A DNA stretch of 52,227 nucleotides from assembly GCA_003135555.1 (NCBI GenBank), contig PLCF01000056.1, positions 173-52,399 of the forward strand. The letters are read 5' to 3'. Shown piece by piece: positions 13,944-43,585 of the stretch; position 1 is the stretch's first letter, and every line of letters starts with the position of its first letter. The notes under the pieces were generated by a model. The model was not told the origin of the DNA, did no database searches, and saw only the letters and a program-made list of their open reading frames with translations. Origin of the DNA: Vulcanimicrobiota bacterium. GTDB taxonomy: Bacteria; Vulcanimicrobiota; Vulcanimicrobiia; Vulcanimicrobiales; Vulcanimicrobiaceae. The position numbers were made by a program, and so were the translations under genes.

Positions 13944-14060
13944 GCAAGCGCCAGGTGTGGTTGAGGTAACTCGTGCCGTGTTCCGCCACGTTACCGGGCG
14001 GCGGTACAGTCGGTCAAGCGGCCGGAGTGGGTGGTCCAGGCTTGCCCTTCCAGACGGCGG

Positions 14061-18858: not shown

Positions 18859-19488
18859 CCCGGATTCACCGGATGAGCGTCGAAGCAGCCTGAGCAGCTT
18901 GGCCCGATTTGCCGTATAATTAGCGTATGAGCGACGATCTCGACGGGCCAAAAGCGGTGAACCCGGCGGGTGAAGCGCCAGAAGGCATCCTTCGACTGGA
19001 TTTCGACCGCCGCGTCATGGCCCAGTTTCGGGGATCGCTCGTCACGTCAGATGCAGGTCTACTTGCATATCGGGAGCTCGACGATGCCCTCGGCTTGAGT
19101 GATCTTGCAGGCGAACGGCTTGCCGACGGACGCACCGGGAAGAATGGCCGTCATGCGTTGGTCGGCCTGCTGCGACAATCGGTCTTCGGCCGCTTAGCCG
19201 GGTACGAGGACGTGAACGATGCTGATCGCCTACGGCACGATCCGGCAATGCGCTGGATAGTCGGCGGCAAGGCGGCCAAAGGACGTGCGGCTTCACCGAG
19301 TCAGATGGGCCACCCCACGACGGGCGATTTGCGCCCAAATGAGCAGGTTGTCGGCTCTTTCGCTCTCGGGCCGCCGGAACGGTGCTCAAGAGACCGTCAG
19401 CGACGCCGGCGGAAACCGCGCACCGTGCGGATTTGGCCGGAGGAAGGTAACCGGGCGGCGAATTGGCCAGCCATATGGGGAATCCCGG
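18859..19488 (+). mobile_element. Internally deleted IS1380-family element (630 bp)
   Basis: Terminal IRs CCCGGATTCACCGGAT and (reverse complement) CCGGGATTCCCCATAT, 12/16 match; encodes only the transposase N-terminus. Confidence 0.8.
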
Positions 19489-19493
19489 CTTAA
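18927..19493 (+). pseudogene. Truncated IS1380-family transposase
   Basis: LRLDFDRR..QFRGS.VTSDAGLLAYRELDD..LLRQSVFGRLAGYEDVNDADRLRHDP..ASPSQMG, then homology is lost; most of the DDE core is absent. Confidence 0.88.
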
Positions 19494-19561
19494 GCAAATC
19501 GCGGGCTAAGCTAGGTTCTTTGGTAGACTCAAGTCCGGACAGTTTGGAAGTAATGTAACAC

Positions 19562-19945
19562 ATGGACAATGCGCTAACCCGCGACAAAGCAGACGAAACT
19601 GAAAACCTGCAACGCGATGATACCAATATGGTAGGTCCCGCCGCAATCGTTTGGCGCGCGCGAAAAGTTCGTTCCTCTGTCAGGCGCCCAACACGGGATA
19701 AATGGCCGGAGTGCAAAACGTGTAAGAATAAGGCGGACTTTTTCGTACGGTTCCACGATCACATTTCGTATTGGTCGTCGTGCAAGGCGTGTCTGGGCGC
19801 TTTCGTCCTCGAGGCTTTCGACGAGATTGAGGCGGCCGAGACCGACGATGAAAGCGTGGACCTCGAGGCTTTAAAAAGGTCGGTCGAAAAGGCGAAAGAA
19901 CTGTTGCATTCCGATGATCTCGATGTCGGTAGTGGTCCTGGATGA
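19562..19945 (+). CDS. Hypothetical protein with CxxC..CxxC (possible Zn finger) and acidic C-terminus
   Basis: CKTC and CKAC; lower-GC context. Confidence 0.4.
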   Translation: MDNALTRDKADETENLQRDDTNMVGPAAIVWRARKVRSSVRRPTRDKWPECKTCKNKADFFVRFHDHISYWSSCKACLGAFVLEAFDEIEAAETDDESVDLEALKRSVEKAKELLHSDDLDVGSGPG

Positions 19946-20202
19946 TGGACTCTCCAGCGGGACGACGATCGCAGGCCAACGTCAAATAGCAGTATGTAGA
20001 GGTGACATATGCGAGATCTCTTTCGCTGCACTAAGGAATGAGGTACTTCGTTCGCAAGCGTTGCAGCAGACGAATACAACCAAGTAGAAGGCTATCTCGA
20101 AGACTTGAGTCTACGGGATCAGGATCTGCGTGGTGAAGAATCGAGTTCTTCAAAGGCTGCTCTTTGGTTTAGAGGCTGGTATTTTCTTTGGCTACTAAAC
20201 AC

Positions 20203-22911
20203 ATGTCTGACGCGCTGTCCTTTGTGGTGCTCCGAGATGAGCCGGCCGAGCGCCGCGATGCGCTTTGTCGGCGCTTTTATGCTGAAATCTATAAGGACGC
20301 CTTCCCTAACCCAGACGAGGCGGAGGGACCCGATACGTGGCTACCCTTGATGACCGACGATGTCCCTGTGGGGCAGCCCTTCGTTCACATCATTTTGGCA
20401 TGTGATTCCGACGAGCAAATCGGGGGCGGAATCATCTTCGAACACTATCGCGTGAGCGATTGCTGGCTGGCAACGTACATCGCGGTTCGTCCCGAAAAGC
20501 GGCATCAGGGAATCGGTAGAGATCTCCTCGCTCAAGCCGTCAAAACCATGGCAAAGCAAACCGAGAATATAATCCTTTTCGCGGAGACGGAAATTCCCGG
20601 TCGGCTTTCTACGCCGAACAAGCGCAAGTGGGCGTGGGATCGCCTCAAAGTGCTGACAACATTTGGCTTGCGCAGGCTCCCGATCGATTACTGGCAGCCG
20701 GCGCTCTCACCCGAGAAGCATCCCATCGATACTCTCTACTTGCTTCTTTACGTCGGGGAGAAGGAGCAGAGCTGCATTCCATCATCGAGGCTCGTCACAT
20801 TTCTCACAGAATTTTACCAGGCGCTTCACCAGCCGTCCTCGCCTATATTGAAAAAGATGCGCGATGCTCTTCAGCGCCGGCCATTTCTCGAGACGCAGAA
20901 CCTTCGCGACGCGACGCTGGGTAGCTGCGCTAGCGTCTCCCTACGGATAATGTTTCTGAAACAGTTGACCGGTGACCAAGCGACCGAGTCTAAGGAGCCA
21001 ACGACAATCGACGTCAGCTCGTTGCGCGACATTCTGCGAGGCAACGGGAATCTCAACGATTCCCTCTGCGTACCGGTAGCTTCGTTCTTTAACGACGTCG
21101 TCACGCCGTACAGCGTACCGGATAGTTTACCCCTAATCGTTTTATGCGAACCGTTCGACAAGAACGAGAATGACACCGAGGATCCAGACGACGACGAGCC
21201 GGAGGACGACGACGAGCCGGAGGACGACGACGTGCCCGACCTCCCGCGGCCCGGCACGCAGCCTCCCCGCTGCGTGGCCATCACTTTACCGACGATATTC
21301 ACGATGGTCTGGGAAAAACAACGTAGTTCCTCCGTGCACTTTACGACAACGACGAGGGACGCAAAATTGGTCGACAGCGTGACTTTTTTTGAGAGCGGCC
21401 TCGTTGCGTACTCCGTGTCTTTTGTTTTTGACGCGGCCGACTCCCGCGACGTCATCACCTTAGATCAGGATCTGCTGCTCGTTCTTTCAGCGATCGCGCA
21501 ACCCGCCGGAAAGGTCGATGAAGCTTCCGTTGTGGACTTTTTTCTCACGGGCGAAGGGGATAGTGTAGGGCAGCCGTTGATGGACTTCCTTGGAGCACGC
21601 CTTCGTCAGTTAGCGACGGATGATTCGGGCCAGACTATATTCTCGTTGCTTACGATGAACAAGATCTCCCAACAAGCACACCTACGTAAACATCTGCTAA
21701 CTTTCTTCCCCCAAGGACCTGGCCGAGGTGCGTTCGCCGGTAGAATCTTACTCGACATGGAAATACTCGGCGGCTCACGTCACAAAGAGGTGCTCGAGTA
21801 CGCCGCCTTGTCCGAAACGCGCGAAGCCGAATGCGACCGTTTTTCGCGGAGGCTGGCTGGACTTACTCAAAATGTTCTGGATTATAGAGAGCAAGACCGG
21901 GAGGAGATACACGATTCACTTGCCAGGCCTGTAAGGCTCGGAAGCGACATAACGTTCATCAGTAAGGACGTCGCTACGAAATTTTGCGAAAGCTCCCGTG
22001 TGACTAGAACGATGCGCAATGTCATTGGCGGCTCCCCCTATTGGATGTTCGTACAGCTTGTGATGGGGCACAACGAAGCGTTGTTATCGAACCTTAGCGA
22101 AAATATCGAGCACAACTACCCCGCCGGCCTGATTCAAAAGCTACTCGGTACTCCAACGCGAGACAGCAACAAATTCGTAGACGAGATCGAGCGGGGCGCT
22201 AAGCGAAAGATGAGGCTGGCTCACTACATTCCGAACGTGTTCCCCTATCTCACGGAACAGCTCTTGTACAGCGTTTACTCAGAGAAGCGCGGGCTCAAAA
22301 TACGTCACGCGTACCTCGTCGATTCGGAGGCAGCGTGGGACAACGCGGTCCATGAAAAAGCAGCGGCGGCGAAAGAACAACATGACGAAACGAAGGCCCA
22401 ACACGACGAGTCATTTTCGAAGACCTTGATCGCGATCGGGGTGATCCAGATCGGCGGTGTACTGGCCGCAATTGCAGCCATAAACTCCCTAGATTATTAT
22501 CATTTCTTACACCACATACTTGACCTCACCAACACTCAGGCAGTTTGGAACGTAGGGCGATCGATCCTTGGCTTGGATAATGGAAGACAAGACGAGGATG
22601 TTTCGACAGTGTGGGCGCTTTTATTTGCGCTAGCCTTTATTTGTGGCGGATGCGTGATGCTGGCGAAGGTGCTCCTAGGGTCACCAGCGACAAAGTCTAG
22701 CACGCAAATGTGGTTGAAGAGATGCGCCTATGCCGTTCCTTGCCTGGTTCTTTCTCAAGCCTTCGTTTGCGCCATTCCTCTCCAAGTCTTCTTCCACCCG
22801 AGACGAGCCGTTGCTCTGGCTATTGTAGGCGTCTCGTTGCTCGCGTTGGTGCACTCTAGAAAGAAAGTCATAAGCACAGCGCAGAAGGCAGCCCTTAGAT
22901 TTGGATCGTGA
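20203..22911 (+). CDS. Large fusion: N-terminal GNAT acetyltransferase, uncharacterised central domain, C-terminal TM helices
   Basis: YIAVRPEKRHQGIGRDLL acetyl-CoA motif, ILFAETE, DYWQPAL; coiled coil followed by about 4 hydrophobic segments; lower GC. Confidence 0.75.
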   Translation: MSDALSFVVLRDEPAERRDALCRRFYAEIYKDAFPNPDEAEGPDTWLPLMTDDVPVGQPFVHIILACDSDEQIGGGIIFEHYRVSDCWLATYIAVRPEKRHQGIGRDLLAQAVKTMAKQTENIILFAETEIPGRLSTPNKRKWAWDRLKVLTTFGLRRLPIDYWQPALSPEKHPIDTLYLLLYVGEKEQSCIPSSRLVTFLTEFYQALHQPSSPILKKMRDALQRRPFLETQNLRDATLGSCASVSLRIMFLKQLTGDQATESKEPTTIDVSSLRDILRGNGNLNDSLCVPVASFFNDVVTPYSVPDSLPLIVLCEPFDKNENDTEDPDDDEPEDDDEPEDDDVPDLPRPGTQPPRCVAITLPTIFTMVWEKQRSSSVHFTTTTRDAKLVDSVTFFESGLVAYSVSFVFDAADSRDVITLDQDLLLVLSAIAQPAGKVDEASVVDFFLTGEGDSVGQPLMDFLGARLRQLATDDSGQTIFSLLTMNKISQQAHLRKHLLTFFPQGPGRGAFAGRILLDMEILGGSRHKEVLEYAALSETREAECDRFSRRLAGLTQNVLDYREQDREEIHDSLARPVRLGSDITFISKDVATKFCESSRVTRTMRNVIGGSPYWMFVQLVMGHNEALLSNLSENIEHNYPAGLIQKLLGTPTRDSNKFVDEIERGAKRKMRLAHYIPNVFPYLTEQLLYSVYSEKRGLKIRHAYLVDSEAAWDNAVHEKAAAAKEQHDETKAQHDESFSKTLIAIGVIQIGGVLAAIAAINSLDYYHFLHHILDLTNTQAVWNVGRSILGLDNGRQDEDVSTVWALLFALAFICGGCVMLAKVLLGSPATKSSTQMWLKRCAYAVPCLVLSQAFVCAIPLQVFFHPRRAVALAIVGVSLLALVHSRKKVISTAQKAALRFGS
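21187..21236 (+). repeat. 18-bp in-frame tandem repeat encoding DDDEPE
   Basis: GACGACGACGAGCCGGAG twice plus a partial third copy. Confidence 0.85.
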
Positions 22912-23177
22912 GGAGAGCTGGCCCCGAGTAGTCGGCCAGTCGGATAAGTGGTGACTCTGCTCATGAGCCTCACCCCGTTCGTAGACCGGGACCAACGTTA
23001 GAAAATCGGCTTCCTTGTTGGATTCGGGCTCTCACAGCCGGGATCCCCGGATAGCGAAGCAATTCGCAGCCCGATTGCTTCTTTCCGGCTCGATTGGCAA
23101 ACCGCGGAATGCCGCATCGAGAGCCATCCGCCGGAAACGAGACTCAATATGCGCCCTAAGACGACAGCGCGCGTTAG

Positions 23178-28573: not shown

Positions 28574-28660
28574 AGCGGGCGTGTTTGGTGCAGCTTTTGC
28601 GCCCTTGCCGACGGGCGTGTGACGAATGACCCGGCCGCTCTGAGGCGGCGGCCTTATCGC

Positions 28661-28689
28661 TTGACGATATTATCGCCGTATGATAAGAT
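28661..28689 (+). promoter_or_regulatory. higBA promoter with overlapping inverted-repeat operator
   Basis: TTGACG, 17 bp, TAAGAT with extended TG; TTATC-N7-GATAA palindrome at 28670-28686. Confidence 0.7.
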
Positions 28690-28695
28690 CGGGGC

Positions 28696-28983
28696 GTGGA
28701 CTTCGCCGATCGCGCGACCGCCGATCTCTACAACGGCGTCGATTCCAAGGGTGCGCGGCGCCTCGTTCCAGCGGCCCTTCGGCAGAAGGCGCTGGACAAG
28801 CTAACTCTCCTAGATGCCGCAGTCAGCCTCGATCAGCTGCGTGTGCCGCCCGGGAACCGCCTCGAATTGCTTCGAGGCAACCGAGGCGGACAACACTCAA
28901 TTCGCATCAACGATCAATACCGAATCTGCTTCCGGTGGACCGTCGCCGGGCCTACCGATGTTGAAATCGTCGACTATCACTAG
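28696..28983 (+). CDS. higB: HigB (RelE/ParE superfamily) toxin
   Basis: LRVPPGNRLE.LRG.R.GQHSIRINDQYRICFRW..DVEIVDYH. Confidence 0.95.
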   Translation: MDFADRATADLYNGVDSKGARRLVPAALRQKALDKLTLLDAAVSLDQLRVPPGNRLELLRGNRGGQHSIRINDQYRICFRWTVAGPTDVEIVDYH

Positions 28984-28993
28984 GAGTTCCACG

Positions 28994-29347
28994 ATGAATC
29001 GCCCACTGACCATCCCGACGCATCGCCGTCCGGTCCCGCCCGGAGAGATCCTTCTTCGCGAGTTCCTCGAGCCGCTACAGATCACGCAAGCGGCTTTTGC
29101 GAAACGCATCGGCGTCACGGCGGCGCGGCTGTCGGAGATCATCCACGGGAAGCGCCCCGTCACGATGGACACCGCGCTGCGTCTCGAACGAGCGCTCGGG
29201 ATGAAGGCAGAGTCATGGCTGCGTATGCAACTGACCGTCGACATGTACGACGCGCTGCGCGGTCCGGCTGCGCGAGTCGTCGCTAGCATCAAACCTGTCC
29301 TGACCAGGACCGGGACCGCCGCCCGGCCCCGCGCCGTCAGCCGATAA
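28994..29347 (+). CDS. higA: HigA family antitoxin
   Basis: Follows higB; HTH motif; near-identical to 23894-24253. Confidence 0.95.
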   Translation: MNRPLTIPTHRRPVPPGEILLREFLEPLQITQAAFAKRIGVTAARLSEIIHGKRPVTMDTALRLERALGMKAESWLRMQLTVDMYDALRGPAARVVASIKPVLTRTGTAARPRAVSR

Positions 29348-29354
29348 GGTTACC

Positions 29355-29386
29355 CTACCAGATCTGGCAGCCGCCCTTGGGGACCA
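29355..29386 (-). repeat. Copy 2 of the M13 peptidase 3' end (degenerate)
   Basis: 28/32 nt match to 24262-24293. Confidence 0.85.
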
Positions 29387-29573: not shown

Positions 29574-30038
29574 ATGCCGCGACCGCCCCTACCGCCGTTC
29601 ACTCGCGAGACTGCCACGCAGAAGGTGCGGATGGCGGAAGACGCCTGGAACACGCGCGAGCCCGAGCGCGTCGCGCTCGCCTACACCGAGGACAGCCGGT
29701 GGCGCAATCGCTCGGAATTCTTTGCGGGCCGAGACGCGATCGTCGCGTTTTTGCAGCGCAAGTGGGCGCGCGAGCTCGACTACCGGCTCATCAAAGAGCT
29801 GTGGGCGTTCGACGGTAATAGGATCGCGGTGCGCTTCCAATACGAGTGCCACGACGATGCGGGGAAGTGGTTTCGCGCGCACGGCAACGAACAGTGGGAG
29901 TTCGACGAGCAGGGTCTGATGCGGCGCCGCGAGGCAAGCATCAACGACGTGCCCATCAGCGAAGGCGAGAGCAAGTTCACCTGGCCGCTCGGTCCGCGCC
30001 CAAACGGCTTCCCAGGACTCACCGAGCTCGGGCTCTGA
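29574..30038 (+). CDS. DUF1348 / SnoaL-like NTF2 protein
   Basis: [57 protein letters not shown]. Confidence 0.92.
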
Positions 30039-30041
30039 GGG

Positions 30042-30076
30042 CTACCAGATCTGGCAGCTGTCTTTGCGCACCATCG
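30042..30076 (-). repeat. Copy 3 of the M13 peptidase 3' end
   Basis: 32/35 nt match to 24262-24296; the three differences are synonymous (MVRKDSCQIW*). Confidence 0.88.
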
Positions 30077-30183
30077 TGGGACAACGAAGGGCCCGGGAAA
30101 GAATAGTTTCCCCGTCGTGACGGAGAACGCTGCGCTGAATGCAGTCGTGGTGACGTGCCGCCCTCGGACTATACGAACAAACA

Positions 30184-30861
30184 ATGGACCGCATATTCCT
30201 CAGCTACCATTTCGCCCCCCGCTCTGATGTTGTTCCGCTGGTGGCGGACATTGTCGAGAGTCATGGGCTTCACGTTGACGATGGGGTCGATCTAGGCGGG
30301 GGCACGCTGACGGCCGAAATAAGGCGCCGTATACAATCCGCAGGCGCGCTCGTTTCGGTGTTCACACCCGATGAGGAGCTTCTGCGCGGGGGATTTCGAT
30401 CCGCCCCATGGGTTGAAAGCGAGTTTCAATATGCGAAAGACATTGACAAACGCGCAATAGCAGTAGCAGTCGACGGGGTAGCCGTTGCGGGTATGTACTC
30501 CGCGGACGAGATGATTATTCTGAACAGCGCGGCGCCGATCGATGCTTTCCTAAAATTGAACAGAATAGTGGGCCTTTGGGTCCGCGAGGCGGGACGAACC
30601 GTTCGCGTACGGTTGGAGGCGGAAACCATCGCGGACGTCCTTGAGGAGGACCTGACAACCTGCTCCTACAGGCTGCAGGAACGCGGCGAAATACAGGGTT
30701 GGGCCATTGCTGCTATTATCCGTGAACCAGGTGGCTATTTTATCTTTGTGCCGAGTGTTCGTGAAGGGCACTCTGTTCAGGTAAGGCTCACTACACGAAG
30801 AGGTGTGTGGGAGTCAGCGTTTACACCACAACATATGGTGACTGTTTTGGAGCCTCGGTAG
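30184..30861 (+). CDS. TIR-like domain plus uncharacterised beta-rich C-terminal domain
   Basis: RIFLSYHF..V..IVESHG..I...I..A.ALVSV..PWVESEFQYA....K; lower GC. Confidence 0.7.
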   Translation: MDRIFLSYHFAPRSDVVPLVADIVESHGLHVDDGVDLGGGTLTAEIRRRIQSAGALVSVFTPDEELLRGGFRSAPWVESEFQYAKDIDKRAIAVAVDGVAVAGMYSADEMIILNSAAPIDAFLKLNRIVGLWVREAGRTVRVRLEAETIADVLEEDLTTCSYRLQERGEIQGWAIAAIIREPGGYFIFVPSVREGHSVQVRLTTRRGVWESAFTPQHMVTVLEPR

Positions 30862-30863
30862 CC

Positions 30864-31526
30864 ATGCCCGATAATCTCATCCTGGCTCAAGATGTCGAGC
30901 GCACGAGCGCCAACCGGTGGCGCTGGAGCGTTTGGCTGGTCGGTCCAAACGAGATTTTGGATCAGGTGCGCCACGTCGTGTACTTGCTTCACCCCACGTT
31001 CAAGGAACCTGTGCGGCCCGTCAGCGACCGATCAACTGCGTTCCGCTTGACGTCAGCGGGATGGGGAGATTTCACCATACGTGCACGCGTCTTCTTCGAG
31101 AGCGGCGAGGAAACGCTGCTCACTCATCGCCTGCGACTACACGACGAGCGAGGACCTGAGACCGCTCCATCTGTCTTCCTATCGTATGGGAGCGCTGATC
31201 GTGAGATCGCCGACAGAATCCGCGGAGAGCTGCAGCAGCGGGGCATCAGAATCGTCGACCCCGTTACAGCGCCCGCGCTCTTAGTTTCAGAGGCGGTTGA
31301 AAGTGCCCTTGATGAGGTGAACGCAGTCTTCGTTATTTACGGGCTCTCACGATCGCCAAACGTCATCTTCGAAGCCGGCTTTGCGCGCGCGCTTGGCAAA
31401 CCGGTCATCATCGCATTTCCTGCTGAAACGTCGGCGATGCTTCCTTCGGACCTACATGGCCTTCAGTACTATCGCGATTATGACGACGCGATCGTCGCCC
31501 TCGAACGAGCTCTTGCCGCAAGATAG
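30864..31526 (+). CDS. pYEATS-TIR fusion protein
   Basis: W.WSVWL.G..LDQV..VVYLLHPTF..PVR..F.L...GWGDF.I.A (YEATS), then SVFLSYGSAD..A..I...L...GI..SPNVIFEAGFARALGKPVII (TIR). Confidence 0.85.
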   Translation: MPDNLILAQDVERTSANRWRWSVWLVGPNEILDQVRHVVYLLHPTFKEPVRPVSDRSTAFRLTSAGWGDFTIRARVFFESGEETLLTHRLRLHDERGPETAPSVFLSYGSADREIADRIRGELQQRGIRIVDPVTAPALLVSEAVESALDEVNAVFVIYGLSRSPNVIFEAGFARALGKPVIIAFPAETSAMLPSDLHGLQYYRDYDDAIVALERALAAR

Positions 31527-31662
31527 CGCGATGACGTAGAGCAGCATATGCCGCACGTACTACGCGCCGCCAGGCCTTATAGAGCCCGGCGGCATTCCAG
31601 GACGACAGTACTGCTCTAGCCAGGTTTAATACCGACTTACCGCGAGCCTTGAGTCTCTCGGT

Positions 31663-32391
31663 TCAGTCGACGATCCGTTCATTCATACGGATCTGATCAC
31701 TAGCGGCCGCGACCGTTGTGTTCCATAGTTTCGACAGCGACTCGATCGTCCGCCCAACAGCGGATGGCATCGTAGGTCTACCATCGTTCGTCGTTAAAGG
31801 CCCGTCCGTTTCGACCAATATGCGATCACGTGGAAGAGACAGGGTAAGGTCTCGGCCAGCCTCTGTGGAAAGCATGATGTGATTCACAGAGAAGTAGCAA
31901 CCAAGCTCCGACGCGCGGGCTCCTTCCTTTTTCGATCCACTGAACCAGTGCAATATCTTCGTCGTCGTACGATCCGAGCAGACCTGTTCTAAATCGTCCA
32001 ACACATGCCTGACGGCACGCGCTGAGTGAATTGACATCACTTTGTCCTGAGCTCGGCACAGTGTTAAAATCGTTCGGAACACATCCCGTTGGCGCTCTAA
32101 CGAATGAAATGCTTGTGGACGTGCATCTAGGCCGATTTCGCCGATATACTGCGCGCCGGGTGCGAGCCGTGTGAACAGGTCAAGGTCCGCCTCTCGGGAC
32201 GCGGCAAGCTCAGGATGAAGGCCAAGCGCGACGCGAAATCGATTGTCGTCGCCAAACCGCAACAGGTTTCCGTTATAAGCTCGCGGTGTCGTGGTTACGG
32301 CGATCACGTTGACTCCGGACTCGTGCACATCTCGCCGGAGGGCCACAACGTCGCTGTAGAGGTCGGCGTGGCAATGAACATCCCAGGACAT
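31663..32391 (-). CDS. qatD: QatD, TatD-family nuclease
   Basis: DVHCH, ALGLHP, IGEIGLD, SIHS, ILHWFSG, ILVETDGP; last gene of the qat operon. Confidence 0.92.
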   Translation of the reverse strand: MSWDVHCHADLYSDVVALRRDVHESGVNVIAVTTTPRAYNGNLLRFGDDNRFRVALGLHPELAASREADLDLFTRLAPGAQYIGEIGLDARPQAFHSLERQRDVFRTILTLCRAQDKVMSIHSARAVRHVLDDLEQVCSDRTTTKILHWFSGSKKEGARASELGCYFSVNHIMLSTEAGRDLTLSLPRDRILVETDGPLTTNDGRPTMPSAVGRTIESLSKLWNTTVAAASDQIRMNERIVD

Positions 32392-32402
32392 CGAGCAGTT
32401 AC

Positions 32403-33719
32403 TCAGGCCCGCGTCCGCACGCGCTCGAGAAGGCTATGCACCTCCGCCATTCCTCGCTGATAGACGGACACGTACTCATCTAGGTGGTCATGAACATCCA
32501 CCATCGGACCCGACCTAAATATATCGATGCTGGCGTTGCTCGGATGCTCCGTAACGCGCTGGGCAGCCGCCTTGAAGGCTCGAATATCTTTGCCTTCCTT
32601 CGCAGTTGCATCTAATACATGGCCGAAGAGGTCAGGTACCGTGTGATAGTCGGTTGGGTCCGCAAGGTTATATCCGGCGCGTATCGCTGCTCGTCGGATG
32701 ATACACGCCGGACAGCAACCGCAGTGGTTCGCCGCAGTTCCTTCTCGGTTCGGCGGTTTGGCGCAGGATACTGACGCGCACACTATCCGTTCTAGGTACT
32801 GCGGCAGAGCACACTGCTGCAGCATTTCGCCTTTCGTAAGAAAGCGGTAAGGCTCACGAATTACAACATCGAATTCGGCTCCTCGCAATAGTTCAGCGAA
32901 ACGGCGCAAGAAATACGGGTGCGCCGTCTTGGTGCTGTTTGAGCCAAGACGATTTACATTTAATGGCACGTTTAGTGCTATCAATCCGTTTTCAGGCACT
33001 ATCAGTTCAATTTGACGCCGATAGCATGACGCCAGAAACGCAGCAAAACTGAGAAATAGGAACGAGCGAGCGCGTTGCGATGGCTCTCGTTGATGATGCA
33101 GACGTTGCGGCGCACGTACTGAAAGCTTTGTGTGCGCAAACACGCCGCGAAAACCCGGCTCAAGTATTCCACGAATGCGATTTTGAGGCCCGCCTACGGT
33201 ACGTGTATCGCTTGAGGAAATACTTGCCGCCATAAGATTCGAACCGTTACTTAAGGCGTCCAAGGCCCCGATGGCGCTGTCGAGCCCCCCAGAGAGGAGC
33301 GTTATCCGCGACGTTTCGAAGCGCGCCTGTTCGATCACCCTGAAACCCATCTGTTCTGAGGTCGCAACGCGTCTCTCAAATCGAAATCGCCAGCGATCAC
33401 TCGAAACGAAGTTCAGGCCGCGAACTAATATGTCCGTCAGGCCTTCCCAGAGCTCCGGTTCATGAACCTCAGCTACCACGTCTAGGTGACGTGTCCAGCC
33501 GTCATCTCCCCATTCAGCGCGGCTAGTCACGGCGTCAGCGAAGTAAACTCCCAACGCCACGGTGAGCAGATCGAGGCCCAGCTCGGTGGGGGAGAGTCCG
33601 AGACGGCGTAGCTCTGACTGGAGTGCTGCAAAGCTGAAGTCTCGGCCGTCTCCGAGTTGGATACTGGTCCGGCCGACGGCGGGCCTCCCGGAACCGATAT
33701 ACAGCTGCTTAACCGCCAT
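32403..33719 (-). CDS. qatC: QatC, QueC-like protein
   Basis: DDGWTR, LLSGGLDS, QRARSFLF, PENGLIALNVPL, T.HPY, TKGEM, SC..HCGCCPACIIRR. Confidence 0.92.
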   Translation of the reverse strand: MAVKQLYIGSGRPAVGRTSIQLGDGRDFSFAALQSELRRLGLSPTELGLDLLTVALGVYFADAVTSRAEWGDDGWTRHLDVVAEVHEPELWEGLTDILVRGLNFVSSDRWRFRFERRVATSEQMGFRVIEQARFETSRITLLSGGLDSAIGALDALSNGSNLMAASISSSDTRTVGGPQNRIRGILEPGFRGVFAHTKLSVRAPQRLHHQREPSQRARSFLFLSFAAFLASCYRRQIELIVPENGLIALNVPLNVNRLGSNSTKTAHPYFLRRFAELLRGAEFDVVIREPYRFLTKGEMLQQCALPQYLERIVCASVSCAKPPNREGTAANHCGCCPACIIRRAAIRAGYNLADPTDYHTVPDLFGHVLDATAKEGKDIRAFKAAAQRVTEHPSNASIDIFRSGPMVDVHDHLDEYVSVYQRGMAEVHSLLERVRTRA

Positions 33720-34602
33720 CGTCGAGGCTTTCCAGAATGCTCCACGCCGCGGCGAACACATCCGTCATGGTGGATTCTGTAAAGGCGATATCTAGTGGTT
33801 GATGTTTCTCCATTGCGCGAGACACTCTTGTCTGCACAGAAATCTCAATATATCGCCCTACGTTTTCGTCAACTGCGGCGTATGCACCATCGGATTGGGC
33901 ATGGCCCCGACCACGCTCACTGACATCAACAAGGTAGCGTCTCTCAATTGCCTTGCAAATGAATAAAGCATAGAAGTTGGAAATCTGGACCTCATTCAAT
34001 TCCGCTAGGTCCACGATCTGCTCTTCGCTCAGCGAAAGCAGGCTGTCCAACAGAGCCTGTTTCGCAATATCATCGTCAATTGTCTCGACGCGCGAGCAGA
34101 CGACGTCAATTATCGCGGCAAAGATCTCGCGAGTCGATCGCCCGATCAGGGCGCCGAGATTGAGGTCTCGAAGAGCAGCCTCAATGCCGCGCGTCTGGAT
34201 ATCGCGGAGGACGCCGATCGAGCCTAGGGCCGCGCGGGACGCTCCTCGCATTCGGCCTGCGGCATTCGCCGAGCCGCGAAGGCCCTCGCGGGCATACCGT
34301 CCGAGGGAACGCCGAAGGCCTCGCCCTGTAGCGGAGCGGCGACGTGAGCCGGCGACGCTCGGCGCAGATGGCATTTCAGCACCATCCGCGACCCACGCGG
34401 TAAAGTTTCGGCGGGCCGCCTCAAAGCGCAACGTCGGCGCGGCGGCCGCATCGGCCTGTGCCGCCGCGTCCGGTCCGTCACCGTTTGCCGCGTCTTCGGG
34501 AGAAGAATCGCTTGCCACCGTATCGGTAGGACTGTCATCCAAAAAGGCCGGGATCAGTGAAGCCTTATTGGGTGTCCCACCAAATGATGCAGACGTTCCC
34601 AC
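33709..34602 (-). CDS. qatB: QatB
   Basis: N-terminal MGTSASFGG..LIP, RF..AR.NFT; position between the KAP NTPase and QueC genes. Confidence 0.85.
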   Translation of the reverse strand: MGTSASFGGTPNKASLIPAFLDDSPTDTVASDSSPEDAANGDGPDAAAQADAAAAPTLRFEAARRNFTAWVADGAEMPSAPSVAGSRRRSATGRGLRRSLGRYAREGLRGSANAAGRMRGASRAALGSIGVLRDIQTRGIEAALRDLNLGALIGRSTREIFAAIIDVVCSRVETIDDDIAKQALLDSLLSLSEEQIVDLAELNEVQISNFYALFICKAIERRYLVDVSERGRGHAQSDGAYAAVDENVGRYIEISVQTRVSRAMEKHQPLDIAFTESTMTDVFAAAWSILESLDDGG

Positions 34603-36458
34603 TAGAGGGCCTTTACCAGTTGAACAGCACCTTCAGCGGCCTTCGCCAGCGTTGCATTCTCCGTCTGAGCGATCCAGCGTTTAAGCAATTCGGTTAACTT
34701 CGGTTTGGACGCTTCGCTGGTAGCGATTTGGACGGCAAACGCCGGTGCCCAGACACCAAGAGCAGATATTGGTAGCTGATCGAGAAACGTTACTGCGCGC
34801 GCCTCAAGCGTCGGGCGGCTCCTCAACAACACGTCTAGCACCCTAAATTCAGGAGGCTGCGCCGTATACTCGCCACGTTGCGAGACCCGCTCTATTAACG
34901 AATCCAGAATCGCGCCAGCGTTGTCCGCAGATAGCGCATCGATTCTCTGTTGTTGCCTGCCAACGGAGAGCCGCTGTCCGCTTGAAAAGAGGCGTACCAA
35001 CGATTCGAGTTCACCAGAAATGGCGTCGCTAACGCCGAACTGGACAAGACGTTCTCGCGAGACAAAGAAATACGGAGCTAGGTCCTCGCCTCCAACTACT
35101 GGATCGATAGTCGCCCAAATGCTCACCCATTCCGATCGTTCCCTCCCAAACAGGGCCTCTGAGGACTGCTCAGCAGCAGTTTCATCGTTCGCGCGTACTG
35201 CGGTTTCCATGGCTGCCAGCTGGGGAACGGTACCGTCAGCGCTCTCCGCAACGGCTCGCGATAAGTTCGTGTATGCCTCAGGTTCGCGGCGCTCCAGAAG
35301 CATCAACTTGGCAAGCGTTGCCATTTTTACACGCGCTCGTAAACGGTACGACTTCGCGACTTCGATTCGAATCATTAGCGTGTTCAAAAAGCGCTTGACC
35401 TGCCGGGGATTCCCTACGTACTTGTCAGCTAGTGGTCGCGCAATCTGCCCAGCAAGGACTACATGTTCTAACAAGGTTTCTCGCGTACTCTTGTCAATGC
35501 CTAACGGTTCAGCCGCCTCCAGAATTAGCTGCCGTAAATCTAGCTCTTTCCACGGATCTCTATCGCTAGCTTGAACGCGTTGGAGCAACGAGTCAAAAGC
35601 GCCAGGTACTTGTCGCAGTGCGTCTTCGACCAGGAGTAGAGTAATGTAGCGGCGAGTCTCTCCAGCCGTCAGCTGTGGAAGACGAATCGGAATCTGAATG
35701 AGCTTTTCGAGATAGTTCCTTGTGAACTTGTCGGATGCGGCGGAAGCCGTAAGGTCGGGGAAGTGCCGCCGCACCGAGTATTCGATCATGCCTTCGTCAG
35801 CGCCAATTACAAATACCGTCTTGTCGACTGACAAAAACAATCGAATTGCTTCTAATGTACCTATCGCGGTGTCGGGCAGGCACCTGTCAAGATCGTCGAC
35901 GAAGATCACTAAGCGAGTCAGCTCAGCCTTATTGATCGCCTCTGTAAATGCACGGCGAAATTCGTGGATGTGCCTGAAGGCCGCGTCTTCCTCGGCATCC
36001 CTTAACAGGGACTCATCGTCTTCCTTGCTCGCGTCGCCGCTCGCAATGAGCTTCGTAAAGTCTGGAACACCGGTAGAAAGAGTGACCGCGAGGCCAGCTA
36101 CTTTGCGCGCAACCTTAAACCAACGAACACGCCGCGCGAGCGCTACCAACTCATCCTTTGCCTTCGTTACGATTGATCTGTTCGTAGCGAGCTCGCTGAG
36201 CACGGAATCCATGAGTGCAATCTTGGCGTCCTCGAAGCCTTCGAAAGCCCAGCCGTTAAATGAAAGTGATATGACGCCCTTACGGTCGTTTAGCTCGCGC
36301 TGCACCATTTGCAACACACTGGATTTTCCATACCCCCAATCACCGTGAACGCCAATCGTTAGCGGGCTCATGTGCTGGCTCAGAATAAGATTGGTTATGG
36401 TGCTGGCGATGCCGCCAAAATTGACTAAGTCGCGATCCGTTTCAGAGTCAACCCACAT
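34602..36458 (-). CDS. qatA: QatA, KAP-family P-loop NTPase
   Basis: MWVDSET..D.VNF, Walker A GDWGYGKS, FNGW.FEGFEDAK, Walker B IFVDDLDRCLP, YLEKLIQIP, GNPRQVKRFLN. Confidence 0.93.
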   Translation of the reverse strand: MWVDSETDRDLVNFGGIASTITNLILSQHMSPLTIGVHGDWGYGKSSVLQMVQRELNDRKGVISLSFNGWAFEGFEDAKIALMDSVLSELATNRSIVTKAKDELVALARRVRWFKVARKVAGLAVTLSTGVPDFTKLIASGDASKEDDESLLRDAEEDAAFRHIHEFRRAFTEAINKAELTRLVIFVDDLDRCLPDTAIGTLEAIRLFLSVDKTVFVIGADEGMIEYSVRRHFPDLTASAASDKFTRNYLEKLIQIPIRLPQLTAGETRRYITLLLVEDALRQVPGAFDSLLQRVQASDRDPWKELDLRQLILEAAEPLGIDKSTRETLLEHVVLAGQIARPLADKYVGNPRQVKRFLNTLMIRIEVAKSYRLRARVKMATLAKLMLLERREPEAYTNLSRAVAESADGTVPQLAAMETAVRANDETAAEQSSEALFGRERSEWVSIWATIDPVVGGEDLAPYFFVSRERLVQFGVSDAISGELESLVRLFSSGQRLSVGRQQQRIDALSADNAGAILDSLIERVSQRGEYTAQPPEFRVLDVLLRSRPTLEARAVTFLDQLPISALGVWAPAFAVQIATSEASKPKLTELLKRWIAQTENATLAKAAEGAVQLVKAL

Positions 36459-36676
36459 GTCGTCCGCCTAACCCAAGCTCGCCACCAGCACACTGTGACG
36501 CCATATAATCGCGACAACAGCACGGAGGGAACCGGGACGACGTCATGAGTAGTGTGCGGACCGCTGCACAATGGGTTTCAGAGCGCGCGGATATCCATCG
36601 CGCCGGAGATCCTCTGTTAGCAGAGAATCGGTCTAGGCTCGATTCGGTTAATAGGAGCGGCGGCGATACGAGGCAT

Positions 36677-39600
36677 TCACGTCTCGGTGAACGCTTCCCG
36701 AACGACCCTCTCTTGCTCGACGGTGTGAGCACCCGGATACCCCTCTGACGGACTCGCCCGATACGGCCGGCCGGTATATTCGACATCGGCTAAGCCGTTC
36801 GGCAACCGTTCCACTAGGCGCCGCCGCACATGCGCGCGAGCCCCCATGTTTTTCGGCTCTTCCTGGACCCATATGGCGTGCCTGGCGTTCGGATACGTCG
36901 CGATCGTCCGTAGGATCTCCTCGGTCGGGAGGGGACTCAGCAGTTCGATGCGCACGATCGCCGTTTTCGTTGCTTGCTCATAGAGCGGACTCGTGGTGAG
37001 GTCGAAGTAGATGTGCCCGCTGGTCAGCAGCACGCGTTCCACACCGGACTTGTCGCCACCGGCGTAGCGCGGGTCGTCGATCACCTCGTGGAACTCGCCG
37101 GTCGCCAACTCGTCGATCGTGCCATATGCCGCGCGATTGCGAAGCAGCGACTTCGGCGTCATCACCACAAGCGGATATGCCTGGGCCGCCTTCGCCTGCG
37201 TCCGCAACAGATGGAAATACTGCGCGGCGATCGAGCAATTCGCCACGCGGATGTTGCCTTCGGCCGAGATTTGCAAGAACCGTTCCAGCCTCGCGCTCGA
37301 GTGCTCGGGACCGGCACCCTCGTACCCGTGCGGCAGCAGTAGCGTGAGCCGGGTCGTCTGGCCCCACTTGGCCGCGCCGGCGGCGATGAACTGGTCGATG
37401 ATGATCTGGGCGCCGTTGTTGAAGTCGCCGAACTGCGCCTCCCACAGCACCAGCGCGTTGGGGATCTCGAAGCCGTATCCGTACTCGAACCCCAGGCACG
37501 CGTACTCGCTCAGCGGTGAGTTGTAGATCTCGAACGATGCCTTGGCGTCCTTGAGATGCTGCAACGGCACGTGCTTTGCGTTGGTGCGAGCGTCGTGCAG
37601 CACGGCGTGGCGGTGCGAGAACGTCCCGCGTTCGGTGTCCTGACCGCTCAGGCGAATCGGCGTCCCTTCGCTCAGCAGCGACGCGAACGCGAGCGCCTCG
37701 GCCATCCCCCAGTCGACCTCGCCGGTCTCCTTGAGCGCCTGCGCGCGCTTCTGGAACTGCGCCACGAGCTTGCGGTTGGGCACGAAGCCTTGCGGCGCGC
37801 GCACGACGTCCTCGCTCCAGCGCAGCAGCGCAGCCTTGTCGACCTTCGTGTCGGGCGGCGCCTCGCTGACGTTCGGGTACACCGCAACCTTGATCAGCTT
37901 GCTCTTGAACTTGCCGCTCTTGACCTTCTTGTGAGCCTCGGTCATCCGCAGCGTCGCAGTGTCCTGCATCTCCTTGGACTGCTCGTTGGTGAGCACGCCG
38001 TGCGCGACGAGTTGCGCGGCGTAGAGCTCGCGCACCGTCGGGTGCTGCTTGATGAGCTCGACTTGGCGCGGCTGGGTGTACGCCGGCTCGTCCTGCTCGT
38101 TGTGGCCGAAGCGGCGGTAGCCGATCAGGTCGACGACCACGTCGCGGCCGAACTTGCGGCGGTAGTCGATCGCCAGGTGCACCGCGGCGATCGAGGCGTC
38201 GACGTCGTCGGCGTTGACGTGCACGATCGGCAAGTCGTAGCCCTTGGCCAGATCGCTGGCGTACCGCGTCGAGCGCGCTTCGCTGGGATCGGTCGTGAAG
38301 CCGACCTGGTTGTTGGAGATGATGTGGATCGTGCCGCCGGTCGAGTAGCCCGCCAGCCCCTGGAGATTGAGCACCTCGGCGACCACGCCCTGTGCCGCGA
38401 ACGCGGCGTCGCCGTGGATGAGGATCGGCGCGGCGACTTCGTGGTTGAGCGTGGCGGGGTTGACGCTGTGGTCGGTCTGCAGGCAGCGCGTCATCCCCTC
38501 GACCACGCCGTCGACGGCCTCGAGGTGCGACGGGTTGCTGGCGAGTTCGACCGCGACTTTGGTGCCCAGCGGCGTCACGTACTCACCGTGCGCGCCGTGG
38601 TGGTACTTCACGTCGCCGGTCGCGTCGGCGTCGCCGCCGTCGGCCGACGGTGACTCCTCGCGCAGCGCAGCCGACTCGAACTCCGCGAGCAGTTCTTCGT
38701 ACGGCCGGTTGACCACGTGCGCGATCGTCGAGAGACGGCCGCGATGCGCCATCCCGAGCACCACGGTCTTGGTGCCGTCCTCGGCCAGGAGCGAGATCGT
38801 CTCTTCGAGCATCGGGACCATCACGTCGAGCCCTTCGATCGAGAAGGTCTTCTGCGACATGAACTGCTTGCGGAAGTAGCGCTCCATCGTCTCGACCTTG
38901 GTGAGACGGAGCAGCAGCTGCACGCGGCGCTGTGGGGTGAGCGCGCGGCGGTGGCGGCCGGTTTCGATGTACTCGCGCAGCCATTCGCGCTGCTGCGTGT
39001 TGGAGATGTGCTCGATCTCGTACGCGATCGTGGAGCTGTACGTTTCGCGCAGGCGTGGCAACACGTCGGCGAGCGTCTTGCCCGCCACCTTGACGCCCAG
39101 CACCGAGGCCGGGATCGCTTGCATCATCGCCGGCGTGAGGTTGTAGTGCTTGGGATCCAGCGACGGATCGTTGGGCGGCTCGGTGCCCAGCGGGTCGAGC
39201 GTCGCGCCGAGGTGGCCGTGACGGCGATACGCCGAGACGACCTGCATCCCCGCGGCGATCGCGCGCAGCATCTCTTCCGACGGCAAGCCCGAGATATCGG
39301 CGGTGACGGCTTCGTGCTCCGCGCGCAGCGTCGGTTGCGCGCCGTTGGCACTCGTCGCAACGCCGCGGATGTTCGCGCTCACCCCGAGCTGCGCGAAGAG
39401 CGTTTCGTAGAACTCGTCGGCGCCGCCCAACAGCTCGTCGACGCGGCGCAGGTACTCGCCCGACTGCGCGCCTTGGATGACGCGGTGGTCGTAGGTCGAG
39501 GTCAGCGTCATGACCTTCTCGACGCCGAGCTGCTCGAGCGTCGCGCGCGAGGCGTGCGCGAAGCCGGGCGGGTACGCGATCGCGCCCGCGGCGATGATCG

Positions 39601-40792
39601 CGCCTTGGCCGATCATGAGGCGCGGCACGGACGCGACGGTGCCGATCCCGCCGGGGTTGGTCAGCGTGAACGTCGCGCCGGTCTGCTCCTCGACCGTCAG
39701 CTTGTTGTCGCGGGCTTTGGCGACGAGCTCTTCGTACGCCGTGCGGAACGCGGCGAAGTCGAGATCGCCCGCGCCTTTGAGCACCGGCACGACGAGGAAT
39801 CGCGAGCCGTCCTTCTTCTGCGCATCGACGGCTAAGCCGAGATTGATCCCGGCTTCGATCTTCTGCGGCTTGCCGTCGGTGCGGCGGAACGACGCGGTGA
39901 TCTCCGGCTGTTCCTTCGCCGCACGCGCGAGCGCGAAGGCGATGATGTGCGTGAACGAGATCTTCTCGGTGCGGCCCGCCGCTTTGAGCGCGGCGTTGAG
40001 CTCGGCGCGGCGTTGCTCCATCGTGCCGACGTGCAGCGTGCGGAACGACGTCGCCACTGGGATCGAGAGCGACTGCTCCATGTACGTCGCGAGGTTCGCA
40101 ACCGAACCCTTGAGGTCGGTGACCTTTGCTTCCGCCGCGATCGGCGGGTAATTGACGGCGCCCTTCGACGGCGCATCGCCCTTCGACGGGCTCAGGGTGA
40201 CACCGGAGGCCTTCCCCGACGCAATTGCAGCTTCGACGTCTTCGCGCAGCACGAGCCCGTCGGGACCGGTGCCGGTGAGTTTCGCGGCGTCGATGTGCAG
40301 CCGGTCGACGAGCCGCCGCGCGTGGTGCGAGAGGGTGCCGCCGGGCTTGCCGTTGGTGGCCGGGCTCGGCGCGTCGGCCTTCGGGGCGGCGGGCGGCGGG
40401 GATTGTGGCTGACCCTTCGACGGGCTCAGGGTGACACTGGGATTCGACGGGCTCAGGGTGACAACAGGGGTGACATCGGGGCCGGGCTCGCCCGTGACGC
40501 CAGGGCCCGTCGCCGCTTTGGCGTCCGTCGTGCCTTCGGGCTTGGCTGCGGTGGTGTCGATTTCGACGAGGACGGTGCCGACGGGGACGGTTGCGCCTTC
40601 GTCGCCGTGCAGCGCCGCGACGACGCCGCTCGCGGTGGAGGGCACCTCGACGTCGACCTTGTCGGTCGTCACGTCGACGAGGGTCTCGCCTTCGTCGACC
40701 CAGTCGCCGACTTTCTTACGCCACTCGACGATCGAGCCTTCGCTGACCGACTCGCCCATCTCGGGCAGGGTGACGTTCACGAGCGTTTGCAA
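36677..40792 (-). CDS. sucA: Multifunctional 2-oxoglutarate dehydrogenase: lipoyl, E3-binding, E2 succinyltransferase and E1 (TPP) domains
   Basis: LPEMGESV..TDKVDVEVPS, GTGPDG.V.REDV, TYDHRVIQGA, GMAHRGRL, HGDAAF, LWEAQFGDF, GPEHSSARLER; TTG start after GGAG. Confidence 0.95.
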   Translation of the reverse strand: MQTLVNVTLPEMGESVSEGSIVEWRKKVGDWVDEGETLVDVTTDKVDVEVPSTASGVVAALHGDEGATVPVGTVLVEIDTTAAKPEGTTDAKAATGPGVTGEPGPDVTPVVTLSPSNPSVTLSPSKGQPQSPPPAAPKADAPSPATNGKPGGTLSHHARRLVDRLHIDAAKLTGTGPDGLVLREDVEAAIASGKASGVTLSPSKGDAPSKGAVNYPPIAAEAKVTDLKGSVANLATYMEQSLSIPVATSFRTLHVGTMEQRRAELNAALKAAGRTEKISFTHIIAFALARAAKEQPEITASFRRTDGKPQKIEAGINLGLAVDAQKKDGSRFLVVPVLKGAGDLDFAAFRTAYEELVAKARDNKLTVEEQTGATFTLTNPGGIGTVASVPRLMIGQGAIIAAGAIAYPPGFAHASRATLEQLGVEKVMTLTSTYDHRVIQGAQSGEYLRRVDELLGGADEFYETLFAQLGVSANIRGVATSANGAQPTLRAEHEAVTADISGLPSEEMLRAIAAGMQVVSAYRRHGHLGATLDPLGTEPPNDPSLDPKHYNLTPAMMQAIPASVLGVKVAGKTLADVLPRLRETYSSTIAYEIEHISNTQQREWLREYIETGRHRRALTPQRRVQLLLRLTKVETMERYFRKQFMSQKTFSIEGLDVMVPMLEETISLLAEDGTKTVVLGMAHRGRLSTIAHVVNRPYEELLAEFESAALREESPSADGGDADATGDVKYHHGAHGEYVTPLGTKVAVELASNPSHLEAVDGVVEGMTRCLQTDHSVNPATLNHEVAAPILIHGDAAFAAQGVVAEVLNLQGLAGYSTGGTIHIISNNQVGFTTDPSEARSTRYASDLAKGYDLPIVHVNADDVDASIAAVHLAIDYRRKFGRDVVVDLIGYRRFGHNEQDEPAYTQPRQVELIKQHPTVRELYAAQLVAHGVLTNEQSKEMQDTATLRMTEAHKKVKSGKFKSKLIKVAVYPNVSEAPPDTKVDKAALLRWSEDVVRAPQGFVPNRKLVAQFQKRAQALKETGEVDWGMAEALAFASLLSEGTPIRLSGQDTERGTFSHRHAVLHDARTNAKHVPLQHLKDAKASFEIYNSPLSEYACLGFEYGYGFEIPNALVLWEAQFGDFNNGAQIIIDQFIAAGAAKWGQTTRLTLLLPHGYEGAGPEHSSARLERFLQISAEGNIRVANCSIAAQYFHLLRTQAKAAQAYPLVVMTPKSLLRNRAAYGTIDELATGEFHEVIDDPRYAGGDKSGVERVLLTSGHIYFDLTTSPLYEQATKTAIVRIELLSPLPTEEILRTIATYPNARHAIWVQEEPKNMGARAHVRRRLVERLPNGLADVEYTGRPYRASPSEGYPGAHTVEQERVVREAFTET
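40161..40475. repeat. REP-like repeat CCCTTCGACGGGCTCAGGGTGACA in-frame in the sucA linkers
   Basis: Copies at 40179-40203, 40413-40437 and 40443-40463, partials at 40161-40171 and 40464-40475; encode VTLSPSK/N. Confidence 0.8.
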
Positions 40793-41034
40793 AGCTTCTC
40801 CGGGGGCGCCTTCCGACGGGGATTCGGGGTGGGTTCGGGTTGGCCGCAACGGCGGGCCTCCCGCACGACCGCCTTCCATGATACTGCTGGGCCACGCAGG
40901 GTGGCACCGACCTAAGCCGGGCGGTCGGCTACGGCCCCGACCCGGGCGGCCTCACCGGCCCCTTTCATGGTTTCGTCACGGCGTCGTCGTAGAACCACAG
41001 AACCGGAACCGGGCTTTGAGCCGTTAGGAAGATC

Positions 41035-43498: not shown

Positions 43499-43585
43499 TG
43501 GTGCCCAGGAAGGGACTCGAACCCCCACGACCTTGCAGTCACTAATACCTGAAACTAGCGCGTCTACCAATTCCGCCACCTGGGC
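43499..43585 (-). tRNA. tRNA-Leu(CAG)
   Basis: GCCCAGGTGGCGGAATTGGTAGACGCGCTAGTTTCAGGTATTAGT..GGTTCGAGTCCCTTCCTGGGCACCA; long variable arm, encoded CCA. Confidence 0.97.

Follow-up and report, generated by a model that had tools for sequence, protein, structure and literature searches.

TIR signalling is common to bacterial, plant and animal immunity. To our knowledge, the triggers that bacterial TIR systems sense are mostly unknown. In Thoeris, the TIR protein ThsB detects infection and produces an NAD+-derived signal that acts on a distinct effector, ThsA. Here we describe two adjoining genes, gene 1 and gene 2, in a 52,227-nucleotide (nt) stretch of DNA from a Vulcanimicrobiota bacterium (GenBank assembly GCA_003135555.1, contig PLCF01000056.1, positions 173 to 52,399 of the forward strand); this whole stretch is referred to as the window. 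Both genes encode TIR-type domains, and gene 2 also encodes a pYEATS domain. The pair probably provides the sensing component of an anti-phage system on which little work has been done. Our preferred reading, to which we give roughly even chances, is that the pair represents NAD+ immunity of the Tir/Tpr type in a two-TIR variant with pYEATS as its sensor, and that in this genome it is separated from a Tpr-effector operon.

The abstract of a 2020 study by Burroughs and Aravind reportedly brings up YEATS domains in prokaryotes, together with a scaffold of TPRs for NAD+-derived signals. Our gene pair may already be depicted in that study. According to a preprint on the Bacillus cereus system (bioRxiv 10.1101/2023.05.26.542521), Tir/Tpr was first predicted in silico there (Burroughs & Aravind 2020, J Bacteriol). 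The part of the preprint considered here reports that the B. cereus Tir/Tpr operon protects Escherichia coli from phage. Tpr is described as an N-terminal MilB-like glycosidase joined to a TPR domain, acting through N82 and E86 as the NADase and as the maker of a cyclic ADP-ribose (cADPR) isomer, while BcTir carries a Lys at the catalytic Glu position and binds and regulates Tpr. Among the 78 Tpr-centred assemblies given in the same part are Tir-Tpr (28), Patatin-Tpr (4) and caspase types (10.1101/2023.05.26.542521).

A second preprint (bioRxiv 10.64898/2026.10.19.760177), again in the part considered, views pYEATS as a ligand-binding sensor in TIR-ParA conflict systems. Our literature search returned no YEATS paper that also describes Tir/Tpr, and no experimental study of a pYEATS system.

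The two genes and their products

The pair and its domains are arranged in the window as follows (aa, amino acids).

ATG 30184 to TAG 30861, + strand: gene 1, 225 aa, TIR plus Ig/FN3-like beta-sandwich, unnamed family
30184..30594, + strand: gene 1 TIR domain, aa 1-137, with the codon of the putative catalytic Glu80 at 30421-30423
30595..30858, + strand: gene 1 C-terminal beta-sandwich, aa 138-225 (88 aa), without a Pfam match
ATG 30864 to 31526, + strand: gene 2, 220 aa, pYEATS plus TIR
30918..31133, + strand: pYEATS domain of gene 2, aa 19-90, with LHPTF (H43, F46) and GWGDF (W67, F70)
31173..31475, + strand: gene 2 TIR domain, aa 104-204, with Glu170 of NVIFE at the TIR Glu position

The genes are separated by 2 nt, and GGAG lies 11 nt 5' of the gene 2 start. 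A longer gene 2 frame could begin at GTG 30807; ATG 30864 was taken as the start because the N-termini of 12 relatives align there instead. The original prediction, made from the DNA letters, had described this close spacing, a lower-GC island and a convergent, complete qatABCD, and the coordinates, GC bins and PADLOC matches agree with it. Its further observations, namely a Glu in the catalytic helix of both proteins, an N-terminal YEATS domain with LHPTF and GWGDF in gene 2 and an unrecognised ~90-aa beta-rich domain at the end of gene 1, were borne out by the analyses given below. The same holds for its statement that no ThsA, cyclase or Argonaute partner is adjacent, as our Pfam scan of the window open reading frames (ORFs) detected no ThsA-like (SIR2-SLOG or Macro), cyclase or Argonaute domain.

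The Pfam TIR_2 score of gene 1 was 23.3 bits, under the cut-off of 28. We modelled the protein on a 98-member alignment (pLDDT 93.0), and aa 1-137 formed a TIR fold in the model. This part matched the TIR domain of SfSTING (7un8_A) with a VIA Z of 16.1 (rmsd 2.3, 128 aligned) and, by Foldseek, the TIR domain of SARM1 (6o0u_A) at 1.4e-5. Glu80, in the motif WVESE, and F5 were invariant in all 98 aligned family members. The family profile placed WVrdE on WVHKE of SARM1/TIR-1, a motif that contains the catalytic Glu of SARM1. Gene 1 is, judging from its model, a divergent TIR protein that has the TIR fold despite the sub-threshold Pfam score.

The C-terminal domain of gene 1, modelled alone, formed a seven-to-eight-stranded sandwich (pLDDT 88.5). 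Its best VIA Z was 6.8 (4q1z_A), followed by FN3 and Ig domains; the look-alikes in the Atlas were generic sandwiches, and Foldseek gave no match at E<=1e-3. W173, W209 and S211 were near-invariant in the 98-member alignment. A hidden YEATS domain was also considered for this part and rejected, as hhalign against the pYEATS alignment gave 0.2% and the folds resembled only generic Ig/FN3 sandwiches.

With a profile built from five sequences, a full HMMER search of 1.84 billion representatives gave 1235 matches to the gene 1 family at E<=1e-3 and, at E<=1e-30, 165 clusters. The members were almost all 220-240 aa long and were matched end to end. Those looked up, including one from a Kofleriaceae metagenome-assembled genome (MAG), were all annotated as 'hypothetical protein'. 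Gene 1 thus belongs to an unnamed family. A word-index protein search with gene 1 retrieved 5 proteins including the query; tblastn against plasmids gave no match, and a scan of viral contigs with the family alignment detected no relative.

For gene 2, the pYEATS domain was recognised clearly, with 80.7 bits for PF20305 (cut-off 26.9) and 54.9 bits for YEATS PF03366. Thirteen residues, W19, W21, W24, G27, L42, H43, F46, R56, F60, G66, W67, G68 and F70, were invariant in 13 of 13 gene 2 relatives. The pYEATS profile matched the human YEATS2 structure at 1e-13, Yaf9 at ~1e-11 and Taf14 at ~2e-9, and in the alignment to YEATS2 LHPtF fell on LHPSY and GWGeF on GWGEF. In eukaryotic YEATS readers, the motifs LHxxF and GWGxF line the acyl-lysine pocket. 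By these sequence comparisons, gene 2 is predicted to carry an intact YEATS-type aromatic pocket.

The TIR domain of gene 2 scored 28.6 bits for TIR_2 (cut-off 28) and 28.3 bits for CAP12-PCTIR_TIR (cut-off 24.7). The column of Glu170 held E in 8 of 10 complete relatives. Four residues before it, the window protein has N, and the other relatives have W.

A word-index protein search with gene 2 retrieved the query alone, and its only plasmid match in tblastn was an unrelated pYEATS protein from Stanieria. Seven of 401 genomes of the window's phylum contained pYEATS, the other six in different contexts without gene 1. Two loci from the window's genus (L033, L034) encode a protein with an uncharacterised N-terminal part of ~130 aa and a C-terminal pYEATS domain, adjoining HicA/HicB toxin-antitoxin genes.

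Conservation of the gene pair

At every one of the 15 loci that allowed a judgement, a pYEATS gene followed the gene 1 relative at a distance of -4 to +16 nt; the pairing on which the original prediction depended is therefore conserved. These loci were the window, L008, L013 and 12 metagenome loci. L008, a betaproteobacterial MAG, has a gene 1 relative that overlaps a pYEATS-TIR gene by 4 nt. L013 comes from G517, a second genome of the same phylum; there, a 100-aa pYEATS protein without a TIR is encoded 3 nt after the gene 1 relative. Downstream DNA was available at 12 of the 15 metagenome loci, and all 12 had the pYEATS gene. Ten of the 12 are independent, as L018 nearly duplicates L019 and L020 nearly duplicates L021. 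A TIR_2 domain was found in 8 of these 12 (weakly in L024), three were cut by the contig end, and in the full-length pYEATS protein of L026 TIR_2 was not detected. The count leaves aside L025 and L028, which lie at a contig edge, L027, in which gene 1 is cut after ~156 aa and adjoins transposases, and L009, a 60-residue match at E 8e-4.

Some gene 1-like proteins were fused to a second TIR. In P0013, this TIR aligned to the gene 2 TIR (hhalign 97.8%, E 1e-12), and P0101, P0110, P0130 and P0132 have a canonical TIR_2 domain N-terminal to the gene 1-like part. Such fusions favour a shared function of gene 1 and gene 2. Of 401 genomes sampled from the window's phylum, one had a full-length gene 1 match; of 401 from the phylum of G401, two did. 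Gene 1 and gene 2 form one operon, whose two members are passed on together in different phyla. Prediction of a complex between the two proteins gave a score of 0.00 in two runs without controls, which is evidence neither way.

PADLOC v2.0 assigned the pair weak generic TIR matches alone (best 7.9e-5), and its PycTIR and CBASS TIR-effector models matched at 1e-3 to 5e-4. No PADLOC v2.0 model was specific to gene 1 or gene 2, and the same outcome was obtained at 1e-5 with the relatives in L023 and L015.

Genomic neighbours of relatives

We then turned to the genes around the pair. A TPR-S (PF20308) gene was located within ~5 kb of the pair in four of the five relatives with at least 4 kb of flank, and this TPR-S/Tpr neighbour was often accompanied by patatin, protease or hydrolase genes. 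L008 has a TPR-S-trypsin gene with a patatin further along, L013 has TPR-S with a patatin nearby, and L015 has two TPR-S genes, one of them fused to an alpha/beta hydrolase. The most compact arrangement was observed in L023, in which a hydrolase, gene 1, pYEATS-TIR, TPR-S and patatin genes form a co-directional string; the last four of them are spaced 0, 12 and -4 nt apart. The patatins matched CBASS phospholipase-effector models at 1e-36 to 1e-46. Because Tpr genes recur near four of the five long-flank relatives, we read the pair as a Tir/Tpr-type front end, more elaborate than the known one.

This recurrence also bears on the view of the original prediction that the system is stand-alone, which is doubtful and probably wrong. 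Its statement that the pair is not a named system stood in part: no PADLOC model names the pair, as described above; on the other side, pYEATS is a Pfam family and the Tpr core is that of the Tir/Tpr system tested in 2023.

Depletion of NAD+ by a TIR alone is an accepted mode of defence, as in SARM1-like proteins, TIR-STING and SPARTA. The pair may accordingly be a self-contained two-TIR abortive-infection system, in which pYEATS senses and the TIRs assemble and deplete NAD+ without a separate effector. No effector gene adjoins the pair in the window, both TIRs retain the Glu, and gene 1-like proteins fused to a second TIR exist without any further domain; several short contigs also show the pair alone, though they are too short to judge. 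However, this explanation does not fit well with the Tpr genes near most long-flank relatives, often together with patatin, protease or hydrolase genes and in L023 within the same string, or with the L013 pYEATS protein that has no TIR at all. We regard this explanation, which is that of the original prediction minus Qat, as the main alternative, possible but less likely.

Further neighbours of the relatives included SIR2-TIR, nSTAND1, caspase, patatin and TIR-WD40 genes, Tn3 and insertion sequence (IS) transposases, and a type IV secretion system (T4SS) coupling protein. These surroundings are typical of defence or mobile regions, in agreement with the defence context in which the original prediction had placed the pair.

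We also weighed a non-immune role, in which the two TIR genes would serve regulation or NAD metabolism, or would persist in a mobile island as an inactive remnant. The weak TIR scores and the N in place of the conserved W in the gene 2 TIR are compatible with this, and the sequencing listed for the locus is DNA only (three runs, all from a single peat-metagenome study). Both frames are nevertheless intact, and the catalytic Glu and the pocket residues are kept across sequences that are 25-45% identical. The sparse, patchy spread across phyla (1/401 and 2/401 genomes) and surroundings rich in defence and mobile genes are, moreover, typical of conflict systems. A non-immune role therefore appears very unlikely.

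Three neighbourhoods contained additional genes 3' of the pair. At L016:5988-7340, a 123-aa ThsB-like TIR gene and a caspase (Peptidase_C14) gene come directly after it and may together be a separate adjoining system. Genes for a NUDIX hydrolase and for a TIR-WD40 protein lie at L018:2471-2971 and L019:2680-4647; the NUDIX enzyme could degrade ADP-ribose-type signals.

The Tpr operon elsewhere in this genome

Matches to PF20308 in this genome were confined to contigs C52 (78.9-81.9 bits) and C54 (29.9 bits). The former belong to an operon.

C52, ~17.9-21.9 kb (L031:5876-9938), - strand: TPR-S/Tpr of 468 aa, SLATT_3-like protein of 566 aa and patatin of 411 aa

The C52 TPR-S protein was 39% identical over 467 aa to the L015 TPR-S protein encoded near the pair, and it matched the ASK1 TPR region at 2.4e-15. 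N86, N88 and E92 of the N-terminal domain were invariant across four aligned Tpr proteins (C52 and three relatives). No TIR gene was detected adjoining the C52 operon. A link in trans between the pair and this operon is only suggestive. The C52 operon is an assembly of the Patatin-Tpr type and may constitute an independent defence system.

Proposed mechanism

If the pair is a pYEATS-sensing two-TIR variant of Tir/Tpr-type immunity, infection would be perceived by the pYEATS pocket, and perhaps also by the sandwich of gene 1, through binding of a cue such as an acyl-amide-bearing peptide or small molecule. Binding would license assembly of the two TIRs and processing of NAD+. The TIR output would then be read by Tpr, or would regulate it, Tpr comprising an N-terminal NADase-type glycosidase and an ASK1-like TPR-S scaffold. 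Tpr-linked effectors, which may be a patatin phospholipase, a SLATT-like membrane protein, or a protease or hydrolase, would act next, and the outcome would be abortive infection. For this genome, we propose that the pair acts in trans with the C52 operon, or on NAD+ alone, because no Tpr gene adjoins it and the sole strong candidate is on C52.

Several observations weigh against this variant reading. No TPR-S (PF20308) match was found on the window's contig or within the 52-kb window. The pYEATS protein of L013 has no TIR, so that some lineages can dispense with the second TIR; the gene 1 TIR is under the Pfam cut-off, and the gene 2 TIR is just 0.6 bits over it. At L016, where ~4.5 kb of upstream and 2.6 kb of downstream DNA was available, the neighbours are a ThsB-like TIR and a caspase in place of Tpr; at L018 and L019 they are NUDIX and TIR-WD40 genes. 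TPR-S is also widespread apart from the pair: strong TPR-S genes are present in four same-genus genomes without gene 1 (G053, G198, G265 and G366), and 116 of the 401 sampled genomes of the phylum have a match, which exceeds the cut-off in 83 (the 116 include a weak match in G248, flagged unpublished). Five further TIR_2 genes in this genome could serve C52 instead. Since defence genes cluster in any case, proximity by itself does not establish function. In addition, the 14 loci other than the window were mostly retrieved via one gene 1 motif and represent the family in a biased way; other routes led to the window and the G517 locus.

A more specific version can be imagined. The pYEATS domain would read infection-linked protein acylation or an acyl-amide metabolite, the heteromeric TIR would make a new NAD+-derived messenger, and the TPR-S of Tpr would decode it and fire the patatin or SLATT protein, with the parts workable from separate loci. 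We consider this full sequence of events unlikely.

The Qat neighbour and other features of the window

The pair shares a lower-GC island with a complete Qat system.

30040..36600, no strand: lower-GC island holding the TIR pair and qatDCBA only, flanked by a DUF1348 gene and a gene for a fused E2-E1 2-oxoglutarate dehydrogenase
31663..36458, - strand: qatDCBA, complete Qat system (PADLOC QatA-D models)
31663-32391, - strand: QatD, PADLOC Qat model 9.6e-81
32403-33761, - strand: QatC, PADLOC Qat model 1.2e-115
33709-34602, - strand: QatB, PADLOC Qat model 6.8e-50
34602-36458, - strand: QatA, PADLOC Qat model 6.9e-174

GC content was 0.53-0.58 over 30000-36499 in 500-nt bins, apart from a single bin of 0.66, and 0.61-0.70 in the flanks. 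At the island borders there was no tRNA gene (the closest is at 43499), and no long flanking direct repeat or att-like repeat was found.

The original prediction had suggested that the pair possibly cooperates with Qat, and an accessory or sensor of QatABCD might be expected in such a position, as the two share the island and are 136 nt apart. Gene 2 and qatD are convergent, however, and are thus not co-transcribed. Qat is also complete by itself, with QatA-D all present outside gene 1 and gene 2, and no KAP-NTPase, QueC-like or TatD gene was found among the ORFs scanned near the other 14 pairs. Qat is a neighbour of the pair, not a conserved partner, and the suggested cooperation is barely conceivable in the light of these results.

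A 32-nt direct repeat, 84% identical between its copies, was located at window positions 29355-29386 and 30042-30073, flanking the DUF1348 gene immediately 5' of gene 1. The repeat contains the palindrome CCAGATCTGG and could be an operator, a terminator or a repetitive extragenic palindromic (REP)-like element. Just before the first copy, at 28814-29347 (+), the window encodes a HigA-family antitoxin (TIGR02607, 99.5 bits) that is extended N-terminally by ~70 aa, and a short ORF at 28619-28804, just 5' of it, could encode the matching toxin. On the other side of the island, at 36677-40879 (-), lies the gene for a 1400-aa polypeptide in which lipoyl, E3-binding and E2 acyltransferase domains are fused to a complete 2-oxoglutarate dehydrogenase E1.

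A second lower-GC block (GC 0.53-0.57) spans 19000-23000. It encodes a 907-aa protein, of which an N-terminal GNAT acetyltransferase is the sole recognised part, and contains several ORFs without family matches. Two overlapping tandem PAS-GGDEF-EAL genes, of 706 and 758 aa, are located at 14031-18145 (+).

Significance

The strictly conserved pocket, in a domain with acyl-lysine-reading relatives among eukaryotes, gives a concrete and mutable hypothesis for the trigger of a bacterial TIR system. Obligate pairing with the unnamed TIR-Ig protein defines a family of at least 165 clusters that are now labelled 'hypothetical' and that defence-finding tools could add. The recurrent Tpr/TPR-S link ties the pair to a system with a single experimental study so far, a preprint, and the location of the pair and Tpr at separate loci in this genome offers a natural test of action in trans. 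If the more specific version, in which TPR-S decodes a new messenger made after pYEATS has read the acyl cue, is true, the system would be a bacterial forerunner in which YEATS readers meet the ASK signalosome scaffold, both of them eukaryotic modules, within a single immune pathway.

Comparison with known systems

With SARM1/TIR-1 and the bacterial TIR NADases (TIR-STING, TIR-SAVED, SPARTA), the pair shares the TIR fold and a W-V-x-x-E motif. It differs from them in its sensor domains, as neither gene contains STING, SAVED, APAZ or Argonaute. CBASS and Pycsar are set apart by their cyclase, a domain not detected among the window ORFs. The separation of a TIR sensor from its effector would follow the same logic as Thoeris, by analogy. 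Unlike Thoeris, however, gene 1, gene 2 and the whole genome gave no match to ThsB_TIR PF08937, and PADLOC gave no ThsB match; a ThsA-type gene (SIR2-SLOG or Macro) was not found in the window, and the recurrent partner is Tpr/TPR-S.

Gene 2 is a clear PF20305 member, as expected for the pYEATS conflict systems, whereas the obligate upstream partner with a TIR and an Ig-like sandwich does not appear in the part of their description considered here. The fold and the pocket motifs are those of the eukaryotic YEATS readers (YEATS2, AF9, ENL, Yaf9, Taf14), but the pYEATS domain of gene 2 is fused to an enzyme domain and stands outside a chromatin context.

Compared with Tir/Tpr, the pair has two TIR genes, both with Glu, whereas BcTir, as given in the part of the preprint considered, is a single TIR with Lys; the pair also adds the pYEATS and Ig-like domains. 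The core Tpr gene is absent from the window locus and present near L008, L013, L015 and L023. Resemblances to Tir/Tpr are the linkage of a TIR-bearing gene to Tpr in relatives and the patatin and caspase genes as companions. The TIR companion typical of that system is found here twice over, in that both genes carry TIR domains. By analogy, the pair may also share its NAD+-based chemistry and its anti-phage role.

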